Below are positions 5,601 to 26,681 of a stretch of 32,000 nt of DNA, piece after piece; position 1 is the stretch's first letter; each line of letters begins with the position of its first letter. A program made the position numbers and the translations under genes. Location of the stretch: the NCBI RefSeq assembly GCF_000009705.1, contig NC_003272.1:3210001-3242000 (forward strand). The letters run 5' to 3'. The stretch is from Nostoc sp. PCC 7120 = FACHB-418 (GTDB lineage: Bacteria; Cyanobacteriota; Cyanobacteriia; Cyanobacteriales; Nostocaceae). A model generated the notes under the pieces. That model was not told the origin of the DNA. It searched no databases and was given only the letters and a program-made list of their open reading frames with translations.

Positions 5601-8600
5601 ACTGGTAATGCACTAGGAGTCAAGTCAATAGTGAGGTCGTATGTGCCAATATTCGTTCCAGAGGTGGGGATAATCCGACCGCCGCCACTACCTGCGGTGA
5701 AGGGGTCATAGTAACGGTTAAAGTTAGCTGCAACACCTATGTAGTAAGCACCATCTGCGGTAGCGGTGAACTCTAGGTAAGCATCACGGTTAGAAACAAA
5801 TAACTCGTTACGGGCAGGGTCGTTAAATGATATGGCTAATTGTTGACCTGTGGCATCAAATAAGCGTAGTTCGGTATCAACAAACTGGGTGTTGGTAACT
5901 CCGTCAATATTAAAGGGCAGGGAGTCGATGTCAACTTTAATGGTATCGCCTGCTTTGAGTTCTACCTTGTAGATGTCAACATCTTCGGATCTGTCGATGA
6001 AGTTAGGCGCAGCATTACCAATTCTTGCTTGAATTTTGAATTGGGTATTGTCTTTAGTTAACTGTGTATCAACGGCTTGAGGAATAGTATCGTTGATCGC
6101 TGCTAGGTTGTTACCTTCTGTTTCAACTAACGGGACATCACTGGTATTGTCGTAGATTGTGAAGGTGGCAGTGTTAGCAGTGGGGCTAACTTCATAGCCA
6201 TCACCAGGGGCGATGGAGAAGACTGCTGTCTCTACACCTTCAGCAATGCCATCATTGCTTATAGGTGTTCTAACTACAGCTTGATTAGCTGTGATTTTTA
6301 GACTAAAGCCATTTTCAGCAACACTGACGATTTCTCCACCAGTAATTTCTACGCCAGTCAGGTCAAATTCACCTAAACTATCGCTATTAACGAAGATGGT
6401 GAGACCTTCTGCGGGTGGTGGGGAACTGAGGCTAAAAGTATGTACGCCTACTGTGTTCTCTGACTCAACTAGAGTTGCGGGACTGAAGGTATATCTAACT
6501 AATACTTGAGATGCTGGTGTATCAGCAATGCTCAAGGTAATTGCTGCTTTCGCTGAGTCAATTGTGTATCCTGCACCAGTTTCTAAGCTGAAGGTGAAGG
6601 TTTCGATACCTTCAACTAGACCATCATCAAAGGGTGACAGGGTGATAGTTGAGGTTTGTTGGGTTAACTTGACGTAGAAACCACCTGCACGGAAGTTACC
6701 AATGGGGAAGGATGCACCGTTAGTTTCTATGTCAAACACATCAATGTCACCCAAAGCTCCAGTCACCCCACTGTTGACGTAGACTAATACGCCTTCTGCT
6801 GGTGGTGCTTGGTCTAGGGTAAATGTGAGTGTGGTGGTAGTACCTTCTGATTCAATCAGTTGGTTTTGGCTGATTTCTATGCCTACCTGCGGCACAACTG
6901 TGGGTACAGGTGCTTGCTCTAAGGTTGGGTAGAAGGTAACTGTAGAGGTGTCCGCATCTGGGTTAATTATGGTGTTGTTTCCAGCAGCCAAGGAGAAAGT
7001 AGCCGCTTGTGGTGATTCAAGTTGCAGACTGGTGGGAATAACAATGTTGATGAAGGCGTTATTCTGTGTCAGTTTGAAGGTAAAACCTGTAGCCTCACCT
7101 GTGGCTGGGTCATAAATCGCTTCGCCAATTTGTCCGCCCACAGTGAAAGGTCTGACTCTAACGGAGTTGCCGAAGTATTGCCGCAGGATAATGTCACTGT
7201 TGATAACAACCTCTGCACCACCTTCAGGAATTGCACCATCTGCTGTTAAAGCGATCGCTAATACTGCTGCACCTGATGGGGGAGCAGTCACTAGGTATGG
7301 AGACAGAATCCTTTCACCTGTGCCGGCGGATGAGTAAGTCCCTGTGACTGTTTCGATGGAGATGATTGGGCCATCACCTGTGGGAACTGGTGCAGGGGGA
7401 TTGACAACCGTACCAACTTCTGAATTGAGGCTGAGATTGAGGGTATATGCCCCAGTAGTTGTACCTGTACCGCTTCCCTGGACGTTAGGATCGTAGGGGT
7501 TAAAGTTGGCTAGGTTGGGATTTTCAGCAGTGCGATCGTAGTTGGGATTGCTGCTGACACCAATGTAATAAACGCCGTCTGCGGTTGCAGTGAAATTAAT
7601 GTAGGAGTCGTTGCGGGAAAGGAATATCTCGTTGGGGGCTGGGGCGATGCGGTTAGCTGCTAACACGTTACCTTCAGCATCAAAGACTTGCAAGGCTGAG
7701 GAAAGGGTAGAACCATTGATCTGTGCATCGATGTCAATCGCTAGGCGATCGCCTGCTTTCAATTCAACTTTGTACAGGTCTACATCTTCGGTGTTGTCAA
7801 CGTATGTCCAACCTGCATCTGTGGGGTTAATTCGGTATCTATTTACACCGCTATAACCGATTTCCCCGGTGATTGATAGCGTGGGGTTAGCCTCACTAAG
7901 TCCGGTATCGTTGGCTGTAGCAATGGTATCATTGCTTTCTATTTCTGCACTTAGGGGTGTTAGTGCATCTACGATAGTGAAGATTGCTTGGTTGTTAGTT
8001 TCCCCAATGATGTAACCTGTTCCTGGCTGCAAGCTGAAGACGGCTGTTTCTGTACCTTCCGTGATGCCGTCATTTTTCACAGGTAAATCAATCACTGCTC
8101 GTTGTGCAGTCATACTCAAGTCAAAGCCATCTTCTCTGACTGCGACAATAGTCCCCCCAGTAACGCTAATTCCTGCCAGGTCAAATTCACTCAGATTTGG
8201 TGCGCTGACAGAAATCACTACGCCTTCTGCGGCTGGAGGCGCGCTCAAGGTGAAGGTGTGGCGGGAAACTGTGCCATTAGCCTCAATCAGAGTGGCTGGT
8301 GTTCTGGTGAGCGTGAGTGATGGTAGGGTCGATTCTGGGGTGTCTTGGATGGTAAATACCACAGTATTTTCTGTGGAGTTGACTGTGTAACCAGGATTTG
8401 CTACTACGCTAAAGCTTTGAACTTCTACCCCTTCTGTTACACCGTCAGGGAATGCCGCTACTGTAATACTGGCAGTCTGTTCGGTGATGCGGAAGTAGAA
8501 GCTATTAGCACCAATGAGAGCGGGGAACTCTCCACCTACGACTTCTGCTTGCAGGACATCAAAATCACTCAAGCTGGAGAATTGCGCGCCTCTGACTAAA

Positions 8601-11600
8601 ACTACTACACCTTCTGGTGGTGGTGGTTCACTGAGGCTGAAGTTGAGGGTAACTGTGCCGCCTTCCGACTCAACTATGGTGGTGTTGGTGGCACTGAAGC
8701 TAACTTCTGGGGTGACGCTGGGTGCTGGTACGTCTTGCAGTGTGTTGTAGACCGGGAATGTGGTGGATTCTGCCTCTGAGTTGACACTGTAGCCTTCCCC
8801 ACCTTGGATTGAGAAGGTAGCTGAGGCTAGGTCATCGGCTGCTAGTCCACTCTTGAGCCGGAAGACAATTAAGGAGTTGGGTGATGTGACTCTGACTTTG
8901 AAGCCAATACCGTTACCTGCTTCGTCGTAAATTCCCTCTAGAACTTGCGCTCCTGGTGAGAATGGTGTCCCATTTAATCCACTGACATATTTCCACAGGT
9001 CTAGGTCGGTGATGACATCAACTACTAAACCTTCTTCTGGGATTGTACCGTCTACATTCAGGGATAGGTTGAGGATGGCTGCACCTGTTCTGGTCGTGCC
9101 TTCTGCGTCTGTATATTCTGGTGATTTTACTAACCCATAAGCTAGTAGGTTATTTTGAGCATCTGCTGTTACGGGGGTAGCACTAATCCCTACTACGGGC
9201 TGTTCAATAGTCATAGTGTCGTCAATTGTTATGGTTACTTGGTTTGCTTCGGGGTTAACTTGATACTGCTCACCATCGCGGAGGGTATAGGTATAATTCC
9301 TTGGCCCATCTACTTCCCCGTTATTAAACACCGGTACTGTAATCGTTGCAGTCTGTTCGGTGATACGGAAAAGTACGGCACTGACAAATTCATTTGTGCC
9401 GACAATTGTGCCGCCTGTGGTAGTTAAACCAACAGGGTTGAGAGTATCTTCAGGATTACGGGGATTATCCACCGTCACGTTAAATTGAGCAATGGAGCGG
9501 GGTACACCACTATCTAGGTAGACGACAACGCCTCCTTCTGGGGGTGGGCTGTCGAGAGTAAAGGTGATAGTAAGGACTGTTTGTTCTGATTCAAACAGGG
9601 TGCTGGGAGTAGCAGAAACACTCACCACTGGCCCTACTCCTCCAGGTACTCCATCAGTGACGGTGAAGCTGGCAGAACTGGCTGCGGGATCTACTGTGTA
9701 ACCTTCTCCTGCTTCGAGGGTGTAGGTAAAGGTAGCGTCGCTTTCTTCTAAGATGTCGTTTAAGACAGGCAGGCGAATTGTTGCCGTTGGTTCGAGGATG
9801 GTAAAGGTGAAGCTGCTCAGGTCTGTTTCGAGGGCAAACAGATCCAATCTTCCCCCAGTAACTCCAGTCTCTACCAAGGGACGGTCAAAGCGGTAGAAAA
9901 CATTGGCTTCGGCATCAAAGCGTACTTGCGCCGCCGTGAACTGCCTCATGATGTTGGCAACATCACCTTGTAGACGCACGGTGATACCTTCGGGGGGAAT
10001 ACCGCCTGTGGTGTTGAAGGTTAATGTTAAGACTGTTCCTTCTGCTTCGCTGACTATCTCTGGCGATGCTGTGAGGCTAACTACTGGTATGGTTGATGGA
10101 GCAGTATCGTTAATTGTGAAGGTAATTGCGTTTTCACCAGGAACAAAGTCATATCCTGGTACGGGGCTAAGAGTGTAGGTAAAGGTTTCTGCACCTTCTA
10201 CAACTTCATCTCTAAATAGAGGTAAAGTGATGGTTGCGGTTTGCTGGAGTAATCTGACAGTAACAGCACTAGATGTAGCATTAGCTCTTAAAAACCTTAA
10301 TCCATCAAATGCTGCACTAAATACATCAAATTCAGCAAGCGATCGCCCTACGCCACTATCAAATGTAACTTCTAACCCTCCTTCTGGGGGTGCTTCACTC
10401 AGTTGAAAGGTTAAAACAATACTGTCGTTATTAGCCTCAACTAAAGTAGTCGGACTAGCGGTAAAGCTAATTGTTGGCATAGTTGCTGGTGGGTTAACTG
10501 TGATGCTAACTGTCGCAGGTGCAGAATTTACCTTGCTGTCGTTGGCTAGATAGGTAAAGCTGTCTGTACCTGAAAAACCTGCATTGGGTGTGTAACTAAA
10601 TGAACCATTGCTGTTTAAGGTCAGACTACCGTTGCTGGGTGCTTGCACCACTGCGGCGGTGAGTGGGTCTGACTGAGCATCGGTATCATTGCTTAATACA
10701 CCATTAGCTACGTCCACTATCAGTTCTTGACCGGCTGTTGTGATGTAGCTGTCGTTGACTGTGACTGGTGGGTCATTTGGTGGTGGCGGTGCTGCGTTGA
10801 CTGTGATATTGACAGTAGCAGGTGTAGAATTTGTCTTACTGTCATTAGCTAAATAGGTAAAGCTATCAGTACCAACAAACCCTGCATTGGGTGTGTAAGT
10901 AAATGAACCATCAGTGTTGAAGGTGACGCTACCGTTGCTGGGTGCTTGCGCTACTGCGGCTGTCAATGGGTCTGATTGAGCATCAGTATCATTACTTAAC
11001 ACACCATTAGCCGCATCCACTACCAACGCTTGATCTGCTGTTGTGCTGTAGCTGTCGTTGACTGCAACTGGCGGGTCGTTGGGTGGTGGCGGTGGTGCAG
11101 TGACTGTAATATTAACTGTCGCCGGTGCAGAATTTACCTTAGTATCGTTGGCTAAATAGGTAAAGCTATCTGTACCCACAAACCCTGCATTGGGTGTATA
11201 CGCAAACGAACCATCAGGATTGAGGGTGACGCTACCGTTGCTGGGTGCTTGCACTACTGCGGCTGTCAGTGGGTCTGACTGAGCATCGGTATCGTTACTC
11301 AACACGCCATTAGCCACAGCTACTACCAACTGTTGATCGGCTTGTGTGCTGTAGTTGTCGTTGACTGTAACTGGCGGGTCGTTTGGTGGTGGCGGTGGTG
11401 CAGTGACTGTAATGCTAACTGTCGCCGGTGCAGAATTGGCTTTAGTATCATTAGCTAGATAAGTAAAACTATCTGTACCAATAAACCCTGCATTGGGTGT
11501 ATACGCAAATGACCCATCAGCATTGAGGGTGACACTCCCATTGCTGGGTGCTTGCACTACTGCGGCTGTCAGTGGGTCTGACTGAGCATCGGTATCGTTA

Positions 11601-12397
11601 CTCAACACGCCATTAGCAACAGCCACTACCAATTGTTGACCGGCTTGTGTACTGTAACTGTCGTTGACTGTTACTGGCGGGTCGTTTGGTGGTGGCGGTG
11701 GTGCAGTGACTGTAATGCTAACTGTCGCCGGTGCAGAATTGGCTTTAGTATCGTTGGCTAAATAGGTAAAGCTATCTGTACCCACAAACCCTGCATTGGG
11801 TGTGTAAGCAAATGAACCATCAGCATTGAGACTGAGAGTACCGTTGCTGGGTGCTTGCACTACTGCGGCTGTCAATGGGTCTGATTGAGCATCTGTGTCA
11901 TTACTCAATACACCATTAGCAACAGCCACTACCAATTGTTGACCGGCTTGTGTACTGTAGCTGTCGTTGACTGTTACTGGTGGATTGTTTGGTGGTGGCG
12001 GTGGTGGAACTTGACTAGGATTATCATAGAAGTTAACAGTGACCGCGCTGAAGTTTGGATCAACTGTATATCCTGTGCCTGGTTGTACAGTATAAACTAC
12101 GCTTTGCTGTCCTTCAGGAATCCCATCTTGAAAAATGGGTACGCTGACGGTGGCAACTTGGGATGTAATGTTAAAGAAAAACCCGCTAAAGTCGAAGTCT
12201 CCCTGTGGAACACCACCACCAGTAAAGCTGATGGCAAATAAATCTAGTTGCGTTAAGGACTGGGGTACGTTACCTAAGAGATAAACTCTTACCCCTCCTG
12301 ATGGTGGCGGTTCACTTAACTCAAATCTAAAGGTAAGTACGGTGTCTTGAGTCTCTATGAGGGTTGTCGTGTTGGTTGTAAACTTGACTGTTGTCAT
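2609..12397 (-). CDS. Giant (3262 aa) RTX-type secreted adhesin-like protein: Calx-beta-like modules + 5 tandem-95 repeats + 2 PPC modules + 3 x 263-aa repeats + C-terminal GGxGxD repeats
   Basis: Single uninterrupted ORF in the supplied track. Calx-beta-type signatures recur (PIFQDGIPEGQQSVVYTV, SPFDDGLVEGIETFTFSL, PVFDDIVEEVDTTYTYQL). The C-terminus carries about 14 nonapeptide repeats (GNAGNDRIF GGLGNDYLF GGADDDLLN GGDGNDALF ...) followed by a ~70-aa non-repetitive tail. There is no N-terminal signal peptide, and I noticed no cysteine in the translation. Confidence 0.95.
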   Translation of the reverse strand: MTTVKFTTNTTTLIETQDTVLTFRFELSEPPPSGGVRVYLLGNVPQSLTQLDLFAISFTGGGVPQGDFDFSGFFFNITSQVATVSVPIFQDGIPEGQQSVVYTVQPGTGYTVDPNFSAVTVNFYDNPSQVPPPPPPNNPPVTVNDSYSTQAGQQLVVAVANGVLSNDTDAQSDPLTAAVVQAPSNGTLSLNADGSFAYTPNAGFVGTDSFTYLANDTKANSAPATVSITVTAPPPPPNDPPVTVNDSYSTQAGQQLVVAVANGVLSNDTDAQSDPLTAAVVQAPSNGSVTLNADGSFAYTPNAGFIGTDSFTYLANDTKANSAPATVSITVTAPPPPPNDPPVTVNDNYSTQADQQLVVAVANGVLSNDTDAQSDPLTAAVVQAPSNGSVTLNPDGSFAYTPNAGFVGTDSFTYLANDTKVNSAPATVNITVTAPPPPPNDPPVAVNDSYSTTADQALVVDAANGVLSNDTDAQSDPLTAAVAQAPSNGSVTFNTDGSFTYTPNAGFVGTDSFTYLANDSKTNSTPATVNITVNAAPPPPNDPPVTVNDSYITTAGQELIVDVANGVLSNDTDAQSDPLTAAVVQAPSNGSLTLNSNGSFSYTPNAGFSGTDSFTYLANDSKVNSAPATVSITVNPPATMPTISFTASPTTLVEANNDSIVLTFQLSEAPPEGGLEVTFDSGVGRSLAEFDVFSAAFDGLRFLRANATSSAVTVRLLQQTATITLPLFRDEVVEGAETFTYTLSPVPGYDFVPGENAITFTINDTAPSTIPVVSLTASPEIVSEAEGTVLTLTFNTTGGIPPEGITVRLQGDVANIMRQFTAAQVRFDAEANVFYRFDRPLVETGVTGGRLDLFALETDLSSFTFTILEPTATIRLPVLNDILEESDATFTYTLEAGEGYTVDPAASSASFTVTDGVPGGVGPVVSVSATPSTLFESEQTVLTITFTLDSPPPEGGVVVYLDSGVPRSIAQFNVTVDNPRNPEDTLNPVGLTTTGGTIVGTNEFVSAVLFRITEQTATITVPVFNNGEVDGPRNYTYTLRDGEQYQVNPEANQVTITIDDTMTIEQPVVGISATPVTADAQNNLLAYGLVKSPEYTDAEGTTRTGAAILNLSLNVDGTIPEEGLVVDVITDLDLWKYVSGLNGTPFSPGAQVLEGIYDEAGNGIGFKVRVTSPNSLIVFRLKSGLAADDLASATFSIQGGEGYSVNSEAESTTFPVYNTLQDVPAPSVTPEVSFSATNTTIVESEGGTVTLNFSLSEPPPPEGVVVLVRGAQFSSLSDFDVLQAEVVGGEFPALIGANSFYFRITEQTASITVAAFPDGVTEGVEVQSFSVVANPGYTVNSTENTVVFTIQDTPESTLPSLTLTRTPATLIEANGTVSRHTFTLSAPPAAEGVVISVSAPNLSEFDLAGISVTGGTIVAVREDGFDLSMTAQRAVIDLPVKNDGITEGTETAVFSLQPGTGYIIGETNNQAIFTIVDALTPLSAEIESNDTIATANDTGLSEANPTLSITGEIGYSGVNRYRINPTDAGWTYVDNTEDVDLYKVELKAGDRLAIDIDAQINGSTLSSALQVFDAEGNVLAANRIAPAPNEIFLSRNDSYINFTATADGVYYIGVSSNPNYDRTAENPNLANFNPYDPNVQGSGTGTTTGAYTLNLSLNSEVGTVVNPPAPVPTGDGPIISIETVTGTYSSAGTGERILSPYLVTAPPSGAAVLAIALTADGAIPEGGAEVVINSDIILRQYFGNSVRVRPFTVGGQIGEAIYDPATGEATGFTFKLTQNNAFINIVIPTSLQLESPQAATFSLAAGNNTIINPDADTSTVTFYPTLEQAPVPTVVPQVGIEISQNQLIESEGTTTTLTFTLDQAPPAEGVLVYVNSGVTGALGDIDVFDIETNGASFPIGNFRAGGFYVKLTQQTSTITLSPFDDGLVEGIETFTFSLETGAGYTIDSAKAAITLSIADTPASQVLVRYTFSPATLVESENTVGVHTFSLSSPPPAEGLTIFVNSDSLGEFDLTGVEITGGEIVSVAENGFSLKITANQAVVRTPISNDGIAEGVETAVFSIAPGDGYEVSPTANTATFTIYDNTSDVPLVETEGNNLAAINDTIPQAVDTQLTKDNTQFKIQARIGNAAPNFIDRSEDVDIYKVELKAGDTIKVDIDSLPFNIDGVTNTQFVDTELRLFDATGQQLAISFNDPARNELFVSNRDAYLEFTATADGAYYIGVAANFNRYYDPFTAGSGGGRIIPTSGTNIGTYDLTIDLTPSALPVVGLTASPVVSEADGPGLVLFFNAQGIIPEEGIVISVGGDLRTSAVAQGLQFRQVVESEGVEYLRFNRDTQAYEFRLTQANATVTIPVFDDIVEEVDTTYTYQLLTSEAYTVDSAAATADVTYVDGVPGGIGPIVSISTEQTALNEGDTLTVNFSVDGEIPEGGLTVFVLSPTRASLGEFVIFNEDGTPAVTWEGIAGFPEPDGTGGGFFVTLTEPTASLSLKVFDDGIGEGVETLTFNLVDGEQYEVSPDAGSITLTISELPVVGLTASPVVSEADGPGLVLFFNAQGIIPEEGIVISVGGDLRTSAVAQGLQFRQVVESEGVEYLRFNRDTQAYEFRLTQANATVTIPVFDDIVEEADTTYTYQLLASESYKVDAAASTVDVTFTDGVPGGVGPVVSISTEQTALNEGDTLTVNFSVDGEIPEGGLTVFVLSPTRASLGEFVIFNEDGTPAVTWEGIAGFPEPDGTGGGFFVTLTEPTASLSLKVFDDGPGEGVETLTFNLVDGEQYQVSPDAGSITFTISDPPIVGFTASPIVNEAEGTGLVLTFNVQGNLTAEGVVVSVGGDFRTSAVEQGLQFRQVVESEGVEYLRFNRDTQAYEFRLTQATATVTIPVFDDIVEEADTTYTYQLLASEAYALDPAATSADVTFIDGVPGGVGPVVSISTTQTNLQEGDTLTVNFSVDGEIPEGGLTIFVLSPTRASLGEFVIFNEDGTPAVTWEGIAGFPEPDGTGGGFFVTLTEPTASLSLKVFDDGANEGIESLTFNLVDGEQYQVSPDAGSIALTISDTPTNPVGDAGDNILVGDGNNNSLFGNAGNDRIFGGLGNDYLFGGADDDLLNGGDGNDALFGGAGNNTLLGGAGNDYLTGGAGNNLLDGGDGNDILYGGNGNNTLLGGAGNDIIYSGSGDDLINGGLGNDTIFLNGGQDTVVVAQGAGIDTINNFQVSLGQKVGLSGGLTFEQLTLTQSGLDTLVKVGDETLAVLKFVQSSDLSSSAFTTV
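2828..3223 (-). repeat. RTX / haemolysin-type calcium-binding nonapeptide repeat block (about 14 units, 27-bp period)
   Basis: Translation GDAGDNILVGDGNNNSLFGNAGNDRIFGGLGNDYLFGGADDDLLNGGDGNDALFGGAGNNTLLGGAGNDYLTGGAGNNLLDGGDGNDILYGGNGNNTLLGGAGNDIIYSGSGDDLINGGLGNDTIF fits the GGxGxDxUx consensus. Confidence 0.9.
3242..5608 (-). repeat. Three tandem near-identical 789-bp (263-aa) coding repeats, each a pair of Calx-beta-like modules
   Basis: Copies at about 4820-5608, 4031-4819 and 3242-4030. Copies 1 and 2 both begin LPVVGLTASPVVSEADGPGLVLFFNAQGIIPEEGIVISVGGDLRTSAVAQGLQFRQVVESEGVEYLRFNRDTQAYEFRLTQANATVTIPVFDDIVEE. Copy 3 is slightly diverged (PPIVGFTASPIVNEAEGTGLVLTFNVQG). Identical antisense ORF starts at 4710 and 5499 confirm the 789-bp period. 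Confidence 0.9.
5621..6135 (-). other. PPC-like domain 2 of the giant protein
   Basis: ETEGNNLAAINDTIPQAVDT ... EDVDIYKVELKAGDTIKVDIDS ... ELRLFDATGQQLA ... GAYYIGVAA ... GTYDLTIDL. Confidence 0.6.
7424..7955 (-). other. PPC-like domain 1 of the giant protein
   Basis: EIESNDTIATANDTGL ... EDVDLYKVELKAGDRLAIDIDA ... LQVFDAEGNVLAAN ... GVYYIGVSS ... GAYTLNLSLN. Confidence 0.6.
10502..12007 (-). repeat. Five tandem 300-bp (100-aa) tandem-95 / cadherin-like Ig repeats joined by polyproline linkers
   Basis: The unit PPPPPNDPPVTVNDSYSTQAGQQLVVAVANGVLSNDTDAQSDPLTAAVVQAPSNGxxxLNADGSFAYTPNAGFVGTDSFTYLANDTKANSAPATVSITVTA occurs five times. The DNA motif GGTGGTGGCGGTGGTGCAGTGACTGTAAT recurs at about 11090, 11390 and 11690, with variants at about 10790 and 11990. 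Confidence 0.85.
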
Positions 12398-19902: not shown

Positions 19903-21645
19903 ATGAATTTGGGGAATCCTCAAATCTGGCAGCAATTTTGGCAAATTATTCAACCATACTGGTTATATCGTTGGCGAGGGGATGCGATCGCCCAATTAAT
20001 CATGCTGGTGATTTTATCCTTGGGAAGTAGTTATTTCATCATTTTTGAGATTCTCCAACGCGGAGAAATCACTTCTTCCTTAGCCGCACAGAATTTTAAT
20101 CGGTTCTACCAGACCTTTTGGTTTTTTAGCGGCGTTGTTATTATTAACGTTATATTTATCTCTCTCAAAAACTATATCCAAGCCCAAATCAGCCTTGATT
20201 GGCGAAAATGGCTGACATCTGACTATTTCCAGCAATATTTTGCCAAACAATCCTTTTATCAATTGCAGGTTAACGCTGAGATTGATAATCCAGATCAACG
20301 TTTGGCGGAAGATATCAAAAATGTCACCCAAAGATTAGTAGCACTATTTGTAATTTTTCTTGATTCTTTAGTACAGCTAATAGGTTTTATTGGTGTACTG
20401 TGGCTGATTTCTCCCTTCCTGATGTACTCCTTGGTGACCTACGCTGTAGTCGGTACACTGGTGACAACGCTGGTGTTTGGGAAAGTTTTAGTCGGAATTA
20501 ACTTAGAGCAAATCAAGCGGGAAGCGGATTTTCGCTATGGTTTAGTCAGAGTCAGAGAAAATGCAGAAGCGATCGCATTCTACAACGGACAAACCCAGGA
20601 ATCACAACAACTCAAACAGAGATTTAGTCAAGTATTTGCCAATATTAAGCGTTTAATTAGCTGGCAATTTCGGCTGAATGTCTTCCAAAACGGCTATCAG
20701 TTTCTTACCTTCATCCTACCCTTTTTGATATTAGCTCCCCGAATTTTCTCCCGTGAATTAGAAATAGGTGCAGTCACCCAATCCCAAGCAGCCTTTGAGC
20801 GAGTCGGGTTAGCACTGGGATTAATTATTACTCAATTCAATCAAATTACTACTTTAGCAGCCGGAGTTGAGCGACTTTCAGAACTAGGTAAGGCAATGCA
20901 AACAGAGGCACAAGGGAAAATTAAGTTTGCGGAAAATACAGAGATTAATATTAAAAATTTAACACTAGAAATTCCCGAAAGAGGCAACTTAATTCAAGAT
21001 ATATCTTTGAGTGTCAAACCAGGGGAATCATTAATAATTGTCGGGGAGAGTGGCGTAGGAAAGACATCATTATTGAGAGCGATCGCTGGGCTATGGTTAC
21101 ATGGAGAAGGCATAATTGAGCGTCCAGCTAATGATAGTTTGTTATTTCTCCCCCAACGTCCCTACATCACTTGGGGAAGCTTGCGACAACAATTAACCTA
21201 TCCCCAAACAACAACGAACATTCCCTCTGAAATCCTCCTCAAAACCCTCCAACAAGTACACCTACCCGACTTAGCCCAAAGCCACGGAGGCTTAGACACA
21301 GTAATTGATTGGTCAAGAGTATTATCATTAGGAGAACAACAAAGACTAGCCTTTGCCAGATTGCTCTTAATTCAACCAAAATACGCCATTTTAGACGAGT
21401 CAACAAGTGCGCTAGATGAAGAAACCGAAGCCAGTTTATATCAACAACTGCAACAAACATCAATCACCTATATCAGCGTCGGACATCGCAACACATTATT
21501 AAACTATCATCAAATGGTTTTAGAACTAGCACAGCAAAACTGGCAATTATTACCTATAGATAATTTTTGTTTCGCGCAAAGGCGCATTCGCCCTTGGCGT
21601 TCCCGCAGGGTAGACGCAAAGGATTCTCCGCGCCCCTTTGCGTGA
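19903..21645 (+). CDS. ABC half-transporter, fused permease/ATPase of the ABCD / SbmA-BacA type
   Basis: N-terminal membrane domain of about 330 aa. Walker A is GESGVGKTS, the signature is LSLGEQQRLAFARLLL, and Walker B is AILDESTSALD. It starts 13 bp after the upstream gene. The last ~24 codons (FAQRRIRPWRSRRVDAKDSPRPFA) are read from a dispersed repeat. Confidence 0.85.
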   Translation: MNLGNPQIWQQFWQIIQPYWLYRWRGDAIAQLIMLVILSLGSSYFIIFEILQRGEITSSLAAQNFNRFYQTFWFFSGVVIINVIFISLKNYIQAQISLDWRKWLTSDYFQQYFAKQSFYQLQVNAEIDNPDQRLAEDIKNVTQRLVALFVIFLDSLVQLIGFIGVLWLISPFLMYSLVTYAVVGTLVTTLVFGKVLVGINLEQIKREADFRYGLVRVRENAEAIAFYNGQTQESQQLKQRFSQVFANIKRLISWQFRLNVFQNGYQFLTFILPFLILAPRIFSRELEIGAVTQSQAAFERVGLALGLIITQFNQITTLAAGVERLSELGKAMQTEAQGKIKFAENTEINIKNLTLEIPERGNLIQDISLSVKPGESLIIVGESGVGKTSLLRAIAGLWLHGEGIIERPANDSLLFLPQRPYITWGSLRQQLTYPQTTTNIPSEILLKTLQQVHLPDLAQSHGGLDTVIDWSRVLSLGEQQRLAFARLLLIQPKYAILDESTSALDEETEASLYQQLQQTSITYISVGHRNTLLNYHQMVLELAQQNWQLLPIDNFCFAQRRIRPWRSRRVDAKDSPRPFA

Positions 21646-21670
21646 ACTCCGCGCTCCTCTGCGTTTAAAA
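21573..21670 (+). repeat. Dispersed ~100-bp repeat (family A, copy 1), MITE-like
   Basis: CGCATTCGCCCTTGGCGTTCCCGCAGGGTAGACGCAAAGGATTCTCCGCGCCCCTTTGCGT is shared with the reverse complement of 28532-28643 (CGCATTCGCCCTT...GGCGTTCCCACAGGGTAGGCGCAAAGACTC...TCTCCGCGCCCCTCTGCGT). Confidence 0.7.
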
Positions 21671-21688
21671 CTCCCCTAAATCAGTAAC

Positions 21689-21756
21689 GTAGGGTGTGTG
21701 ACGGCAACGATAAGATTTAAAACATCACGCATATATTCAACTTGCCGTCACGCACC
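21689..21756 (+). repeat. 68-bp hairpin element (family B, copy 1)
   Basis: GTAGGGTGTGTGACGGCAA ... TTGCCGTCACGCACC. The termini form a 15-bp inverted repeat with one mismatch. It is homologous to 23942-24008. Confidence 0.7.
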
Positions 21757-21767
21757 AAGCAAACATA

Positions 21768-22795
21768 ACGCCATGTGCGACTTAATATTCTGTAACAAGA
21801 TCGTCGAACTGAAGAGGGTCACAATTGTGGCGATTAAGCCAGAAACAGACGGTATGAGCTAAAATCTTGCGATTGAGACGACTGGTAAGATGCCACATAT
21901 CTCTCGCTCGAATCTTCTCTATATGAAATCTCTCAACTAATTGACCAATTACTGTTTCAATTAGGCGACGAAAGCGTTGCATTAATCGCACTGAAGATCG
22001 GCTACGAGAGTCAGACATATTAGAACGCAAAGGGGTTTGTAAAGTAATACCCACTTCTTTAAGTTCTCCTGACAAGAACTGACTTAAATAGCCCTTATCT
22101 CCGATTAATAAACCTTTAATTCGCGTGATTAAATCCCAAAGTGCGTCCCGTTCACTGCCATTTGCCGGAGTCAGGGTAAATCCACTAATAACTCCTGTGC
22201 CACTAACGATTAAATGCCCATGAAACCCATAGTACGTCTGTTTTTTAGCAGCACAAAAACCATAATCTGCAAGGGATTTAAAACTTCGGCAGTTGGGAGC
22301 GCGACTCAAGCCACACAAAGGTATTGGTAATCCATCAATCAAATGAAGTTGATCAGAGTATGCTCCTAAATACTGTGCTAATTTTTGTTGTATGAGTTCC
22401 TTGTACTGCCAACAATTAGCTGCTTGACGAATAAAAGCATAGCGACTCTTTAACTGAGGAAATAGCCCTAACCAGTGACGGTGAAAGTATTTCCAAATGT
22501 CTTTGTCAGCATCTATTCCCAAAAACTCTGCCACTACTTCCATTGTTAAAACTTCACTCTCCCTTAAACTCGGAGCAAAACCTCGTCTCTTGATTGGGTA
22601 TATCTGGGTGATTTCCATCCGCACGTCGTCAACACAGCAAAATACGGCAATGATAAACTCTTCAATAGAAAACATTTTTCCCGCATTCCATTCACTGGTA
22701 ACGATTTTCTCGCTCCAGTGCGGATTGTGGGAATTTTCTTTTCAATCGTTCATACACCTCAATTGTGTAACGAAACAATAAGTCGCACATCGCGT
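21768..22795 (-). mobile_element. IS982-family insertion sequence, apparently intact (1028 bp)
   Basis: Terminal inverted repeats ACGCCATGTGCGACTTA (21768-21784) and TAAGTCGCACATCGCGT (22779-22795) match at 16 of 17 positions. Flanking 6-bp direct repeats AACATA sit at 21762-21767 and 22796-22801. A single transposase ORF lies inside. Confidence 0.8.
21782..22675 (-). CDS. IS982-family DDE transposase
   Basis: 297 aa. Starts MFSIEEFIIAVFCCVDD and contains LIDGLPIPLCGLSRAPNCRSFKSLADYGFCAAKKQTYYGFHGHLIVSGTGVISGFTLTPANGSERDAL ... LIGDKGY, which is typical of IS982 transposases. Confidence 0.8.
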   Translation of the reverse strand: MFSIEEFIIAVFCCVDDVRMEITQIYPIKRRGFAPSLRESEVLTMEVVAEFLGIDADKDIWKYFHRHWLGLFPQLKSRYAFIRQAANCWQYKELIQQKLAQYLGAYSDQLHLIDGLPIPLCGLSRAPNCRSFKSLADYGFCAAKKQTYYGFHGHLIVSGTGVISGFTLTPANGSERDALWDLITRIKGLLIGDKGYLSQFLSGELKEVGITLQTPLRSNMSDSRSRSSVRLMQRFRRLIETVIGQLVERFHIEKIRARDMWHLTSRLNRKILAHTVCFWLNRHNCDPLQFDDLVTEY

Positions 22796-22856
22796 AACAT
22801 AGGTAATATCAATCATGATAAAATCACCCTAGCCGAAAATCACCTAAAACCTCTGC

Positions 22857-23657
22857 GTGAAAACCGACAGCATATTTTATCGCCTATTTCAACAATTCCC
22901 CAGCATCTTCTTTGAACTCATTGACAACCCTCCCGAAACTGCCAACATCTATCAATTTGCTTCCGTAGAAATCAAACAAACAGCCTTTAGAATTGATGGT
23001 GTATTTCTCCCCATCCAAGATGAAACTAAACCTATTTATTTTGTAGAAGTCCAATTTCAAGCAGATGTAGATATTTACCTGCGTCTGATTTCCGAAATTA
23101 CCCTATACTTACGCCAAAACAAACGCCAAAATCCTTGGCGGGGAGTAGTAATTTATCCTTACAGACAGATAGATACAGCCGAAAAAGCAGATTTCCTAGA
23201 ATTATTTGAGAGTCAACGTATCAAGATAATCTACTTAAATGAACTAGGTGAAGCTGGATCACTACCCATAGGCATTGCTACGATAAAATTAGTAATTGAG
23301 GCGGAAGATACAGCCATTAACACGGCTAAGGAATTAATCAACCGCACCCAACAAGCACAAAATTTGCAACTGCCACAACAACAGTTACTAGAATTAATAG
23401 AGACAATCTTAGTTTATAAATTTCCCCAAATGAGTCGCCAGGAGATAGAAGCAATGTTTGGTTTAAGTGAGTTAAAGCAAACGCGAGTTTATCAAGAAGC
23501 TAAAGAGGAAGGCAAACTAGAAGGTGAACAGGAAGGTAAACAAAAAGCCAAATTAGAAGCTATACCTAAACTGTTAGCACTGGGTTTAACCGTGGAACAA
23601 ATAGCACAGGCATTAGATTTAGATGTTACAGAAGTCCAGCAAGTAGCAGGTTTATAA
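22857..23657 (+). CDS. Rpn-family recombination-promoting nuclease / putative transposase (PD-(D/E)XK; cyanobacterial DUF4351-tailed type)
   Basis: GTG start. MKTDSIFYRLFQQFPSIFFELIDNPPETANIYQFASVEIKQTAFRIDGVFLP ... PIYFVEVQFQADVDIYLRL ... WRGVVIYPYR is the family-typical N-terminal nuclease core. The C-terminal tail is EAKEEGKLEGEQEGKQKAKLEAIPKLLALGLTVEQIAQALDLD. Confidence 0.8.
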   Translation: MKTDSIFYRLFQQFPSIFFELIDNPPETANIYQFASVEIKQTAFRIDGVFLPIQDETKPIYFVEVQFQADVDIYLRLISEITLYLRQNKRQNPWRGVVIYPYRQIDTAEKADFLELFESQRIKIIYLNELGEAGSLPIGIATIKLVIEAEDTAINTAKELINRTQQAQNLQLPQQQLLELIETILVYKFPQMSRQEIEAMFGLSELKQTRVYQEAKEEGKLEGEQEGKQKAKLEAIPKLLALGLTVEQIAQALDLDVTEVQQVAGL

Positions 23658-23913
23658 ATTTCCGCAAATGAGTCGCCAGGAGATAGAAGCAATGTTTGGT
23701 TTAAGTGAGTTAAAGCAAACACGGGTTTATCAAGAAGCTAAAGAGGAAGGCAAACTAGAAGGCAAACTAGAAGGTGAACAGGAAGGTAAACAAAAAGCCA
23801 AATTAGAAGCTGTACCTAAACTGTTAGCACTGGGTTTAACTGTAGAACAAATAGCACAGGCTTTAGATTTAGATACTGCACAAGTCCAAGAGTTAGCACA
23901 ACAAGAGCGATAA
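23412..23913 (+). repeat. Tandem duplication of the Rpn gene 3' end (unit 238 bp; second copy has a 12-bp insertion and a different 3' end)
   Basis: GTTTATAAATTTCC(C/G)CAAATGAGTCGCCAGGAGATAGAAGCAATGTTTGGTTTAAGTGAGTTAAAGCAAAC occurs starting at 23412 and again at 23650. Confidence 0.9.
23668..23913 (+). CDS. Free-standing Rpn C-terminal-domain (DUF4351-like) mini-protein, 81 aa
   Basis: MSRQEIEAMFGLSELKQTRVYQEAKEEGKLEGKLEGEQEGKQKAKLEAVPKLLALGLTVEQIAQALDLD is almost identical to residues 192-260 of the upstream Rpn ORF. The nucleotide differences are mostly synonymous. The ORF has its own ATG and stop. Confidence 0.6.
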   Translation: MSRQEIEAMFGLSELKQTRVYQEAKEEGKLEGKLEGEQEGKQKAKLEAVPKLLALGLTVEQIAQALDLDTAQVQELAQQER

Positions 23914-23941
23914 CTTCTCTTTGCTACACAAAGCTAGAGCA

Positions 23942-24008
23942 GTAGGGTGTGTTACGACAATGTGAGGATTTAAGCATGAGCGACAGTGTAAATTGCCGTA
24001 ACGCAACG
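23942..24008 (+). repeat. 68-bp hairpin element (family B, copy 2)
   Basis: GTAGGGTGTGTTACGACAA ... TTGCCGTAACGCAACG. Same orientation and architecture as 21689-21756. Confidence 0.7.
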
Positions 24009-24089
24009 TAATCAGACTCTCATATCACTTCACTGTTGAGGTAGAATCAGGGACAAATAAATTTAAAATCCCAAATTACACCTGATTAT

Positions 24090-24305
24090 ATGCTGAAAAT
24101 CAATCAACTGATAGCCCGATCGCAAACCTTGAGATTAGACAAATATAGAGATCAGCGTCCTTTGGCGTATCATCGACTAGCTAACTGGAAACTGGCTCTT
24201 AAAGCTACCCTGCTACTTGCACCAATCTTCATCCCTCTACCAGTAACTGCACAGATATCCAACATTGATATCCCATTCATGTCATTTTACGATTGGGTGG
24301 TATGA
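24090..24305 (+). CDS. Hypothetical small protein (71 aa) with one hydrophobic segment
   Basis: ORF from the track. Its stop overlaps the ATG of the next ORF in an ATGA arrangement (24302-24305). The hydrophobic stretch is LKATLLLAPIFIPLPV. No family recognised. Confidence 0.35.
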   Translation: MLKINQLIARSQTLRLDKYRDQRPLAYHRLANWKLALKATLLLAPIFIPLPVTAQISNIDIPFMSFYDWVV

Positions 24306-24508
24306 GCAATACTGACAAGCAAATCGTTGCCGATTCTATGGCATATCAAGCCGTGATGTCTGTGCTTGTGTTGAATGATCTCAAGCGTCGCGGTGACAGT
24401 GCTGGTATAGCAAAGCTACGTGAAGGTATTATTCGCAGTGCGCGGGTTCTAGGATGGGACTTCAATCGCCTGAAACTCACTAGCCAAGGCTTTGTCACCG
24501 CACGTTGA
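24302..24508 (+). CDS. Hypothetical small soluble protein (68 aa from the ATG at 24302)
   Basis: MSNTDKQIVADSMAYQAVMSVLVLNDLKRRGDSAGIAKLREGIIRSARVLGWDFNRLKLTSQGFVTAR. The 4-bp ATGA overlap with the upstream ORF suggests translational coupling. No family recognised. Confidence 0.4.
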   Translation: MSNTDKQIVADSMAYQAVMSVLVLNDLKRRGDSAGIAKLREGIIRSARVLGWDFNRLKLTSQGFVTAR

Positions 24509-24518
24509 TCGCTTTTTG

Positions 24519-26681
24519 TTAACGTTCCACATCAGCACGCAGACGCTTAACATTATCCTGTAAGACAGCAGAAGGTAAAATATAACTCCCATCAACCGCC
24601 GCATAAGTAGGAAGTTTATCTGTCACAACCTCAATAGTTGCTTGTTGTTGATTAACTTGATGTTTTTGCTGATAAATCCTATTTCCCTCTGCATCCTCCA
24701 AAGACACAGTAAACGGGATATTCAACACTGCTGATTTTTGCTCTCCCAGATTACTTGTATAAAGCTTCTGCGCTTCCACCTTCAATTTAATTTTATATTT
24801 GCCATCAGGTAACTTTTGCCAAACAGCATCAGTTAAAGATACTTGATAAGTAATAACTTCAGCAAACAATTCATTAATTACCTCTCTCTTTTCAGCCCCA
24901 GCCTTACTTAAAATTGCATCCCGTAAATCAATCACTGTTGCATAGGGAGCAGATTTATAACGATACTTATTCAAAAATTCCCGAATAGCAGATAATAAAG
25001 CCTCCTTCCCGATGATATCTTCCACCAATTCCAACACCATACCACCCTTATAACGAGCGATAGGAGTTTCATTATAAACATCAGTTAAAGGCGGTTCTTT
25101 AAAATCAATCTTTCCTAACAGACGAAAGAAATCCCGCATCAACTGTTTTCTCGCTAAAACTTGTTCTTTAGGAGTGCGTCGAGAACGTTGATAAAGTGAA
25201 CTAGCATAAGCACTCAGAGATTCATTAATTGTCATTCCCCCTGCAACATCAGCCGCCATAATTTGCTCATCCCACCAAGCTTGAGCTAACAAATATGATA
25301 ACCAATCAATGATATTTTCTTTACCTAAACCTTGGGCTTGACTTTTCCAAACTAAGACTTCAGGAATGCCAATTGTCCCAGCATCAGAAAATACCATACC
25401 ATTGTAAAAAACAAACTCCGTCACCCGCACTTGTGGAAAAGGATAAGAACCAAAAGTTTTTTCATAAAACTCTAAAGCTTCACCAATTTGAGTGGCGATG
25501 AGTTTCACATTATCTTCGTGGGTTGGATGGTAATAGATTTCAATGGGAACGCGATAATTATTATCTCGATAAACTTTGTAGCGTCCAGAATAAATAGTAA
25601 ATTCCCCACGCTTAGGAGTGGTTGATTGATAACGGAAGTATTTTCTATCTCCTTGCTTCCATTGTTTAATTAATTTCCCCGATGTGATAGCAGTTTGATT
25701 TGCTGATGTACCAATAGTAATATCTGTTTTACCCCAGCCTAAATGAGTTAACATCAGCCCTTGGGATAAACCCACCGGATCATCATGTTTTCTCATTCTG
25801 TCTTCCAGGGGTGGTAGATTTAGCTTTTGACGTAACCAAGCTTTTTTATTTTCTACCATCTTGGTGTAACCCACAAAAGGTAAGATAAAAGGACTATATA
25901 AATAAGTGCCGTTACCTACCACATCGTTAGGATAAATCATGTAGATATCATCATTATCAACCTCATTACGAAATCCTTGGGGGCGTTCAATGCGGGTGAC
26001 AAACTGCATGGTTTGTTTCTCTCCCGGCATCAGAGGTTTTTCTAGGTCATAGATGTGATATCCTAATTTATTATCAGAGGAACATAACTTTAAACCTGGG
26101 TATTTTACATCATCAATTTTTAAATTAATGAAGGTCAATAAATGAATTTCTCGTATCGGTGACTGGGTACGATTTTCTAATAAATATTCACCTTGAGCAA
26201 TAAAATAACGTTGCTCTGGATAAAGGTCAATATTTAGCCGAGTTTCAGTCACAACCGGCATAGGCAGATTTTCATACTTTTTGTATCGCCTTTCCACCTC
26301 CGCCGCCGTTTCTTCGCTGGTAGGTGGTTTGTATGCGTTAACGATAATTGTGTTGTAACCAATCCATCCTCCCACACCTGCAAACATGAATATTAAAGCT
26401 GCTAAAGCACGTTTGACTTTTTTATTAGTATTTCGCCAACCTCTTTGCCAATCTTTAACTAAATTTTGATCAAATGTCCCACGGGGATAAATAATATATG
26501 CCAGCATCATTAAAATTGCTCCCCCAATTGCCCAGTAAAGACTATACCAAAGATGTCCGATTAACAGATGTCCGTAACCGTTCATTAAGGAATATTCAAT
26601 ATCATTGGTAGCAGCAAAACGGTAGAGATTATGATATAAACCCAGGGCGTGGAGAGGAATTTTTGAGAGAGAAATTAACAC
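24519..26681 (-). CDS. Membrane-anchored M1-peptidase-like protein lacking the HExxH zinc site (ABC-2 transporter accessory or fusion-partner domain)
   Basis: GTG start overlapping the permease stop. Two N-terminal helices separated by a basic loop, then about 600 aa resembling the M1 aminopeptidase domain of the ABC permease/M1 fusion family (IEIYYHPTHEDNV; YLLAQAWWDEQI....INESLSAYAS). The only HE dipeptide in the 720 aa is in THEDN. Confidence 0.7.
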   Translation of the reverse strand: MLISLSKIPLHALGLYHNLYRFAATNDIEYSLMNGYGHLLIGHLWYSLYWAIGGAILMMLAYIIYPRGTFDQNLVKDWQRGWRNTNKKVKRALAALIFMFAGVGGWIGYNTIIVNAYKPPTSEETAAEVERRYKKYENLPMPVVTETRLNIDLYPEQRYFIAQGEYLLENRTQSPIREIHLLTFINLKIDDVKYPGLKLCSSDNKLGYHIYDLEKPLMPGEKQTMQFVTRIERPQGFRNEVDNDDIYMIYPNDVVGNGTYLYSPFILPFVGYTKMVENKKAWLRQKLNLPPLEDRMRKHDDPVGLSQGLMLTHLGWGKTDITIGTSANQTAITSGKLIKQWKQGDRKYFRYQSTTPKRGEFTIYSGRYKVYRDNNYRVPIEIYYHPTHEDNVKLIATQIGEALEFYEKTFGSYPFPQVRVTEFVFYNGMVFSDAGTIGIPEVLVWKSQAQGLGKENIIDWLSYLLAQAWWDEQIMAADVAGGMTINESLSAYASSLYQRSRRTPKEQVLARKQLMRDFFRLLGKIDFKEPPLTDVYNETPIARYKGGMVLELVEDIIGKEALLSAIREFLNKYRYKSAPYATVIDLRDAILSKAGAEKREVINELFAEVITYQVSLTDAVWQKLPDGKYKIKLKVEAQKLYTSNLGEQKSAVLNIPFTVSLEDAEGNRIYQQKHQVNQQQATIEVVTDKLPTYAAVDGSYILPSAVLQDNVKRLRADVER

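Follow-up and report, generated by a model that had tools for sequence, protein, structure and literature searches.

An rpn gene followed by a tandem copy of its own tail in Nostoc sp. PCC 7120: a probable cyanobacterial member of the Rpn long/short toxin-antitoxin-like systems

The stretch analyzed here, referred to as the window, comprises 32,000 nucleotides (nt) of Nostoc sp. PCC 7120 (NC_003272.1, positions 3,210,001 to 3,242,000 of the forward strand). Adding 3,210,000 to a window coordinate gives the NC_003272.1 coordinate; this offset was checked on three published transcription units, whose published untranslated region (UTR) lengths reproduce the ends of the open reading frames (ORFs) of the window exactly. 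The subject of the analysis is rpnL, which encodes a 266-amino-acid (aa) Rpn-family protein, together with the small gene asr2667 downstream of it, a free-standing copy of the rpnL tail. The coordinates of these genes and of the surrounding features are collected in Table 1. The original Kazusa annotation listed the tail inside rpnL (23430-23657, residues 192-266) as a separate gene, asr2666.

Table 1. Features of the rpn locus in window coordinates, with the basis of each assignment.
Feature	Coordinates	Strand	Basis
Upstream hairpin element of rpn cassette	21683-21766	+	alignment to relatives, folding
IS982-family insertion sequence, in rpn leader	21768-22795	-	NF033520 E=9e-77, 30-nt inverted repeats
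IS982 transposase all2664	21782-22675	-	ORF, NF033520
IS982 inverted repeats, 30 nt	21768-21797 and 22766-22795		
IS982 target duplication AACATA, 6 bp	21762-21767 and 22796-22801		
rpn promoter-proximal region	22816-22831	+	extended -10-like TGaTAAAAT 22816-22824, published transcription start 22831
rpnL, 266-aa Rpn-family protein, PCC7120DELTA_RS15115, GTG start	22857-23657	+	PF11103, TIGR01784
Internal translation-initiation region in rpnL	23440-23456	+	AGGAG 23440-23444, 9 nt, ATG 23454-23456 (Met200)
Tandem copy A, tail inside rpnL	23412-23649	+	direct-repeat analysis
Tandem copy B, shifted +1 relative to rpnL frame	23650-23899	+	direct-repeat analysis
asr2667, free-standing tail gene, PCC7120DELTA_RS15120	23668-23913	+	ORF listing, TIGR01784, conservation of Shine-Dalgarno sequence and ATG
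Diverged second copy of hairpin element	23940-24015	+	alignment; arm matches +1090 and +1136 from rpn start
asr2668	24090-24305	+	co-transcribed small ORF, outside conserved cassette
asr2669	24302-24508	+	co-transcribed small ORF, outside conserved cassette

A first-pass annotation, made by a model from the letters of the DNA, had called the 266-aa product an Rpn-family nuclease, and profile searches identify it as a full-length Rpn-family PD-(D/E)XK protein. It matches PF11103/DUF2887 over residues 3-201 (E=5e-81; 271.9 bits, cutoff 24.1) and TIGR01784 over model positions 1-273 (150.7 bits, cutoff 52.1), a model to which E. coli RpnE (172.4 bits) and YpaA also match. The PD-(D/E)XK domain of the protein is N-terminal; after it come a long helix carrying 4-aa repeats and a small helix-turn-helix (HTH). 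When the protein is aligned with E. coli RpnE and three homologs from Nostocales, residues D47, E64 and Q66 do not vary; the EXQ form of the PD-(D/E)XK motif has been described for DUF2887 and YhgA-like proteins (PMC3045609). The 81-aa ORF of asr2667 aligns to positions 195-273 of TIGR01784 (51.2 bits).

Direct-repeat analysis resolved two pairs of segments, 23412-23560/23650-23798 at a spacing of 238 and 23496-23648/23746-23898 at a spacing of 250, and copy B therefore carries an extra 12-nt in-frame unit (KLEG), which sits in the GAAGGCAAACTA repeat array at approximately 23746-23809. In ungapped register the identity of the copies is 89-90%, and it rises to about 94% when the 12-nt indel is left out; 14 substitutions separate them besides it. 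The tandem copies that had been proposed at an offset of 238 bp, not a multiple of 3, are borne out, with the end of copy B set at 23899. The same holds for the junction GCA GGT TTA TAA, whose TAA (23655-23657) closes the 266-aa ORF, for the 81-aa ORF after it, and for the in-frame Met192 inside the full-length gene (ATG 23430-23432). The last two residues of the long protein (GL) and its stop codon are supplied by the duplication junction; the protein ends in VAGL, and the copied tail ORF begins 10 nt later. Exact deletion of copy A restores a single-tail gene of 272 aa, so the event was a head-to-tail duplication of the 3' part of the gene itself. The duplicated unit does not reach the native stop, ending a few codons earlier, and this puts the junction out of frame. 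The tandem duplication, of about 238 bp, carried the internal ribosome-binding site and ATG along with the rpn tail.

That the duplication is an artefact of assembly or sequencing is vanishingly improbable. The same two-copy structure is present in the complete genome CP183817.1, in the drafts GCA_014696775.1 and GCA_003514525.1, and in several metagenome contigs, and asr2667 is listed as a gene of its own in the published transcription-unit table of NC_003272.1; these independent sources exclude an assembly artefact, and the substitutions and indel that separate the two copies speak against one as well. An origin of copy B from another paralog, which had also been put forward for checking, was rejected, as the junction joins the tail of the gene to itself head to tail and copy A is the nearest relative. 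Among all tails compared, copy B (WIN_B) is closest to copy A (WIN_A), with a synonymous divergence (dS) of 0.20 versus at least 0.38 for the others, and a closer PCC 7120 paralog was not found among the best 120 database matches. The small gene is a separate, same-strand downstream gene derived from the tail of the adjacent rpn, as are genes of the RpnSs type.

The two translation starts of the family are built differently. The rpnL-type long form starts with GTG in 76 of 77 loci and has a Shine-Dalgarno (SD)-like core upstream in none, whereas Met200, the second Met of the tail (MFGLSELK), is encoded by an ATG 9 nt after AGGAG in 81 of 81 loci, with AGGA invariant. The Glu codon that falls within this internal SD is GAG in approximately 91% of cases, compared with 25% over the Glu codons of these genes as a whole. 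Several loci have I, T or W in place of the first Met (Met192). At the level of sequence, rpnL has an in-frame internal start with its own ribosome-binding site, and a short form, RpnS, of 67 aa is predicted from Met200. The first-pass annotation had the tail protein supplied by a separate duplicated gene, but that gene does not replace the internal start, since the in-gene AGGAG-N9-ATG is intact and conserved throughout. Free-standing copies have likewise kept an SD in front of them, including cases in which the stretch has ceased to be coding. For asr2667, AGGAG lies at 23678-23682 and the SD-backed ATG at 23692, giving a product of 73 aa; public records annotate the gene both as 81 aa and as 73 aa. 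The ORF does run for 81 aa from its first ATG, as originally described, but the product is likely the 73-aa form from 23692, because the conserved SD precedes the second ATG.

Mapping of transcription start sites (TSSs) had been suggested as a check on the small gene, and the published map (PMC10287535), which combines RNA-seq assembly with differential RNA-seq (dRNA-seq) TSSs and includes the TSS set of Mitschke et al. 2011, places asr2667 in the transcription unit of rpn. This unit, TU01708 (window 22831 to 24704; Data Set S1 of PMC10287535), covers rpn, asr2667, asr2668 and asr2669 and has a 3' UTR of 196 nt. Its TSS, iTSS_3232831f, lies 26 nt upstream of the GTG (a 26-nt 5' UTR) and 36 nt downstream of the end of the insertion sequence IS982, behind TGaTAAAAT, which was read as an extended -10 by inspection and was not flagged by the consensus scan. 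That scan for promoters and terminators, run over 21600-24400, returned fewer matches than shuffled sequences and none near the small gene. The IS982 had been placed 61 bp upstream of rpn, and its inverted repeats and transposase confirm it there (61 nt from its end to the GTG). As the TSS lies between IS982 and rpn, the insertion has not silenced the unit. An uninterrupted rpn leader with a single AACATA is found in the cassette L016/L018 of a relative. The IS982 transposase has a published TSS of its own, gTSS_3232809r (window 22809, minus strand; 5' UTR of 134 nt), positioned in the rpn leader 14 nt outside the inverted repeat and 22 nt from the divergent rpn TSS at 22831; given this position outside the element, the transposase seems to be transcribed from flanking DNA.

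AlphaFold2 (AF2) models the 81-aa tail with helices at residues 19-54, 59-65 and 70-80, with a predicted local distance difference test (pLDDT) of 87-93 over residues 41-80. In the model a small HTH-like bundle comes after the long helix, a fold like that of resolvase E-helix/HTH structures and of RpnA-S (7TH0); the matches to resolvase and HTH structures are weak, and the top Foldseek match is a serine recombinase-DNA complex. Homology to the resolvase E-helix/HTH was proposed for the tails of DUF2887 and YhgA-like proteins by Laganeckas et al. 2010 (PMC3045609). The tail profile aligns to residues 121-182 of the γδ serine resolvase at an E-value of about 0.03; the Nostoc protein lacks the serine-recombinase catalytic domain, and the likeness is limited to the small helical module and statistically weak. 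The tail profile aligns to YpaA with an hhalign probability of 82.5% (E=1e-5). A phmmer search of the 266-aa protein against PDB sequences returned one weak repeat-protein match and no 7TH0. The 4-aa units of the tail are KLEG, EQKG and EGKQ, and across loci the distance from KQTRxY to EQIA takes the values 22, 26, 30 and so on to 54 aa, which agrees with the varying count of 4-aa repeats that Zhong et al. describe for the first helix of RpnS. Separately, a profile of the tail HTH matched PDB 8vd6_A ('CAP REPEAT') with E=3e-21; this entry holds five repeats of 33 aa, VRELIEEGKTAEEIAEILGLSVDEIKELIGR.

The closest precedent comes from E. coli, in which Rpn proteins are toxic nucleases neutralised by RpnS proteins made from internal starts (Zhong et al. 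2023, PNAS, PMC10400941). That study reports that RpnS forms dimers via a helix in which the number of 4-aa repeats varies, and that it is also encoded separately downstream, by ypaA (rpnESs) after rpnE and by rpnCSs after rpnC. Each of these rpnSs genes derives independently from its adjacent gene; they were seen in tagging experiments and have sometimes been lost by fusion with the N-terminal domain. For RpnC, a mismatch of one repeat abolishes neutralisation in both directions (Fig. 4D of PMC10400941). We located rpnE at 6905-7804 and ypaA at 7817-8002 of the MG1655 locus (L098). The layout matches that of the window, an Rpn gene followed by a same-strand duplicate of its own tail with SD and ATG: the gap is 12 nt in MG1655 and 10 nt in Nostoc, the tandem copies are offset by 183 and 195 nt (internal AAGGAG-ATG included) and by 238 and 250 nt, respectively, the downstream copy has one KLEG repeat more than the in-gene tail in both, and both pairs match TIGR01784. 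The E. coli unit differs in that it includes the native stop and its offset is a multiple of 3, whereas the Nostoc unit falls short of the native stop by about 6 codons and is out of frame, so that the C-terminus of the long form becomes GL. The Nostoc N-domain also belongs to the DUF2887 Pfam branch and its tail has no PF14261 match, and the Nostoc small protein is known from gene and transcript while YpaA has been detected experimentally. Compared with the RpnL/RpnS systems as a whole (E. coli RpnA-E, RpnP2), the locus shares the PD-(D/E)XK D...ExQ residues and an internal start with a strong ribosome-binding site, and its repeats begin about 19 residues after Met200 (published range, 8-20). 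It does not lie in a recognizable defence island, and the contrast of GTG without SD to ATG with SD in 77-81 Nostocales loci comes from the present analysis rather than from published work. The first-pass annotation had seen in the locus a different genetic solution to the toxin/antidote problem. This part of it falls: because Zhong et al. 2023 describe separate downstream RpnS genes (rpnESs and rpnCSs), and MG1655 rpnE-ypaA has nearly the same anatomy, the arrangement is not a new one. The module is real, and it is not a new kind.

Comparison with related strains, also raised at the outset, was made by scanning one genome per species, and relatives of the 266-aa protein turned up at 80 Nostocales loci. 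Downstream tails proved recurrent, with one or two extra copies in 17 of the 80. Their gaps, frames and junctions vary, which argues for at least about six independent origins, and most are open-framed when read from the conserved MF-ATG. The window junction (…QQVAGL, stop, then GGTTTATAAATTTCCGCAAATG) is common to two cassettes of Nostoc sp. CMAA1605, L017 and L016/L018, the latter with three tail copies. The flanks of L017 and L018 are not syntenic with the window, and homology is confined to the cassette, including the 84-nt upstream element; the N-domain dS among cassettes with this VAGL junction is 0.17-0.32. A junction shared by non-syntenic cassettes implies that the duplication predates their spread and is old.

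Other configurations of the tail were met in the course of this comparison. In six Nostoc genomes (L076, L084, L087, L093, L094, L096) a 103-aa protein is encoded downstream of rpn (e.g. L084:3874-4185); it consists of two tandem tail-HTH units, and its ATG has no SD and is replaced in two genomes, where an upstream TTG alone is left. A single-copy fused allele is present in L097 (ENA ERZ926314 contig, 847 bp) and in P0003; L097 has an A-type 5' end (no extra KLEG) and is B-type from the I/V site onward. These alleles are either natural deletions by recombination between A and B or assembly chimeras. The metagenome contigs L005 and L006 carry mixed A/B single-nucleotide polymorphisms (SNPs).

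On this evidence we consider it probable that the locus belongs to the Rpn long/short toxin-antitoxin-like systems, as a DUF2887-type representative from cyanobacteria that has a downstream gene of the RpnSs type. One transcript would begin 26 nt upstream of rpn, and from it the long nuclease form would be translated poorly, having a GTG start and no SD. Short tail proteins would be translated well from AGGAG-N9-ATG, one of 67 aa from within rpn and one of 73 aa from asr2667, and these may oligomerise with Rpn tails via the repeat helix and so modulate or neutralise the long form, as RpnS does in E. coli. The contrast between the two kinds of start offers a testable explanation for an excess of antidote. 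Toxicity and a role in phage defence are attributed to the Nostoc locus by homology and would follow from its kinship with the E. coli genes.

Several observations weigh against this reading. DUF4351 (PF14261) is the Pfam label for separate RpnS genes in some species, and neither the 81-aa nor the 266-aa ORF matched it at E<=0.01; the tail by itself falls 0.9 bits below the TIGR01784 cutoff of 52.1. The Foldseek match of the tail model to RpnA-S (7TH0) was not significant (E=2.8, rank 47), and with a target-normalised TM-score of 0.71 and a root-mean-square deviation of 1.1 Å over 37 columns it was compatible with that structure but no better than matches to generic HTHs. A PADLOC search of the Rpn protein, the tail and their neighbors found no defence genes nearby; PADLOC-DB v2 matched neither the Rpn protein nor the tail, and this library may lack Rpn models, so that the absence of a defence-island setting is a statement about context only. 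The rpn neighbors are ABC transporters, an M1-peptidase-like protein and IS982. The E. coli counterpart ypaA is annotated in RefSeq as a pseudogene. The remaining difficulties concern the substitution pattern and the repeat number of the downstream copies.

Differences between the copies had been described as mainly synonymous, with purifying selection on both. Over homologous codons, copies A and B differ at 7 synonymous (Sd) and 7 nonsynonymous (Nd) positions, with dS=0.169, nonsynonymous divergence (dN)=0.042 and their ratio (ω)=0.25 (Fisher p=0.012). The description fits the first 64 shared codons (5 synonymous, 1 nonsynonymous) and fails for the last 9 (2 synonymous, 6 nonsynonymous). Selection on the free-standing copy was upheld by comparisons of terminal copies between cassettes, in which ω was 0.21 (WIN_B versus L018_C, p=1e-5), 0.30 (WIN_B versus L017_B, p=9e-4) and 0.33 (third comparison, p=0.002), that is about 0.2-0.3 with the frame open; for the 103-aa double-tail gene, ω was 0.04-0.36 among the six Nostoc genomes.

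A low ω may partly reflect gene conversion from the constrained in-gene copy, and the downstream copy could then be a neutral by-product of unequal recombination or slippage in the repeat-rich tail, a remnant that decays slowly and only looks constrained because conversion overwrites it repeatedly. The A-B dS is 0.17-0.20 in the window compared with 0.39-0.45 in CMAA1605, lower than expected from a junction shared with that strain. Copy number ranges from 1 to 3 with the same junction, as unequal crossing-over predicts, and the mixed SNP patterns of L005 and L006, the clean A/B recombinant L097 and the pseudogene label of ypaA fit this explanation too, as does at least one lineage of downstream copies that is frameshifted (the sole downstream copy of L085 and the third copy of L078). 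We nevertheless judge a neutral by-product unlikely, since terminal copies in different cassettes have reached a dS of 0.4-0.5 with ω at 0.2-0.3 and frames open, the SD and ATG are kept before free-standing copies whose flank is non-coding, and the diverged double-tail gene is conserved in six genomes. Derived sites (ACC GTG) are, moreover, common to WIN_A and L017_A but lacking in WIN_B and L017_B, from which it follows that homogenization has been incomplete, and the YpaA protein was detected in E. coli by tagging (PMC10400941).

The repeat number sits less easily with an antidote to the adjacent nuclease. asr2667 exceeds the in-gene tail by one KLEG, and wherever the lengths could be measured (16 loci) the downstream copy and its neighboring tail are unequal, always by a multiple of 4 aa. 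With about 6-7 independent junction types, and a random pair of tails matching in about 20% of cases, this 16/16 mismatch is suggestive rather than significant. Because one mismatched repeat abolishes neutralisation in E. coli RpnC, a simple cognate-antidote role is doubtful, and the extra KLEG means that the partner specificity of asr2667 probably differs from that of the in-gene RpnS. The downstream tails might instead be variant cassettes, deliberately mismatched in helix length, that serve as a recombination reservoir for exchanging the helix length and C-terminus of the Rpn tail, and so for switching oligomerisation specificity, or as antidotes to other or incoming Rpn proteins and not to the adjacent long form. 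The consistent mismatch points this way, as do the single length shared by the four free-standing copies of the VAGL group (their in-gene tails vary), the fused alleles L097 and P0003, and the loss of rpnSs by N-domain fusion and repeat-number-specific neutralisation reported by Zhong et al. (PMC10400941). We hold this to be quite unlikely: the small number of junction types leaves the mismatch statistically uncompelling, L097 may be an assembly chimera, and programmed or selected recombination lacks direct evidence. If true, mismatched tails would add a cassette-type layer of diversification to a defence toxin.

For the preferred reading, a long/short Rpn system with an RpnSs-type gene, the contribution lies not in the architecture but in how widely it recurs among Nostocales, in the conserved asymmetry of translation signals and in the mismatch of repeat numbers. 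It extends the RpnL/RpnS plus RpnSs arrangement from enterobacteria to heterocystous cyanobacteria, in which DUF2887 proteins are numerous and uncharacterised, and RS15115/asr2667 of PCC 7120, whose transcription start is mapped, becomes a model locus amenable to genetics. The systematic mismatch raises the question of what the downstream copy is for, a question shared with E. coli ypaA.

The cassette is accompanied by a hairpin element. The upstream copy is about 84 nt long, with a stem of 15-16 bp (GGTGTGTGACGGCAA...TTGCCGTCACGCACC) that folds at -28.9 kcal/mol (z=-4.9), and is 93-95% identical to sequence at about -129 from rpn in L017, L018 and L019; in the window it is now split from rpn by IS982. 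The element recurs downstream in partial or diverged form, so that direct repeats surround the module, and in the window the downstream fold is weak (z=-0.25). L018 has copies at 2861-2946 and 4343-4397, and the element is also present in L019. Terminal repeats were not found around E. coli rpn genes by Zhong et al. (PMC10400941). We rejected the element as a general feature of rpn cassettes, as it is confined to the four closest relatives. Rfam gave no match at gathering thresholds in the whole window and none by E-value in 21600-24150.

The co-transcribed asr2668 and asr2669 are overlapping ORFs of 71 and 68 aa without homology to the CMAA1605 cassettes; a weak match of asr2669 to the C-terminus of DUF6683 (E=0.0075) is the sole family signal for either, and the two may be remnants of a disrupted gene. 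The literature on asr2666-2669 yielded nothing beyond a CopraRNA target list, and proteomic evidence was not found; in that list, asr2666 is a predicted target of the small RNA NsrR1 (false discovery rate 0.075; PMC6166021). Elsewhere in the window, a 3262-aa ORF (2609-12397, minus strand) contains tandem DNA repeats of two lengths, 303 nt in 5 copies (80-82% identical) and 789 nt in 3 copies (88-91% identical), and probably encodes a large repetitive surface or adhesin-type protein.

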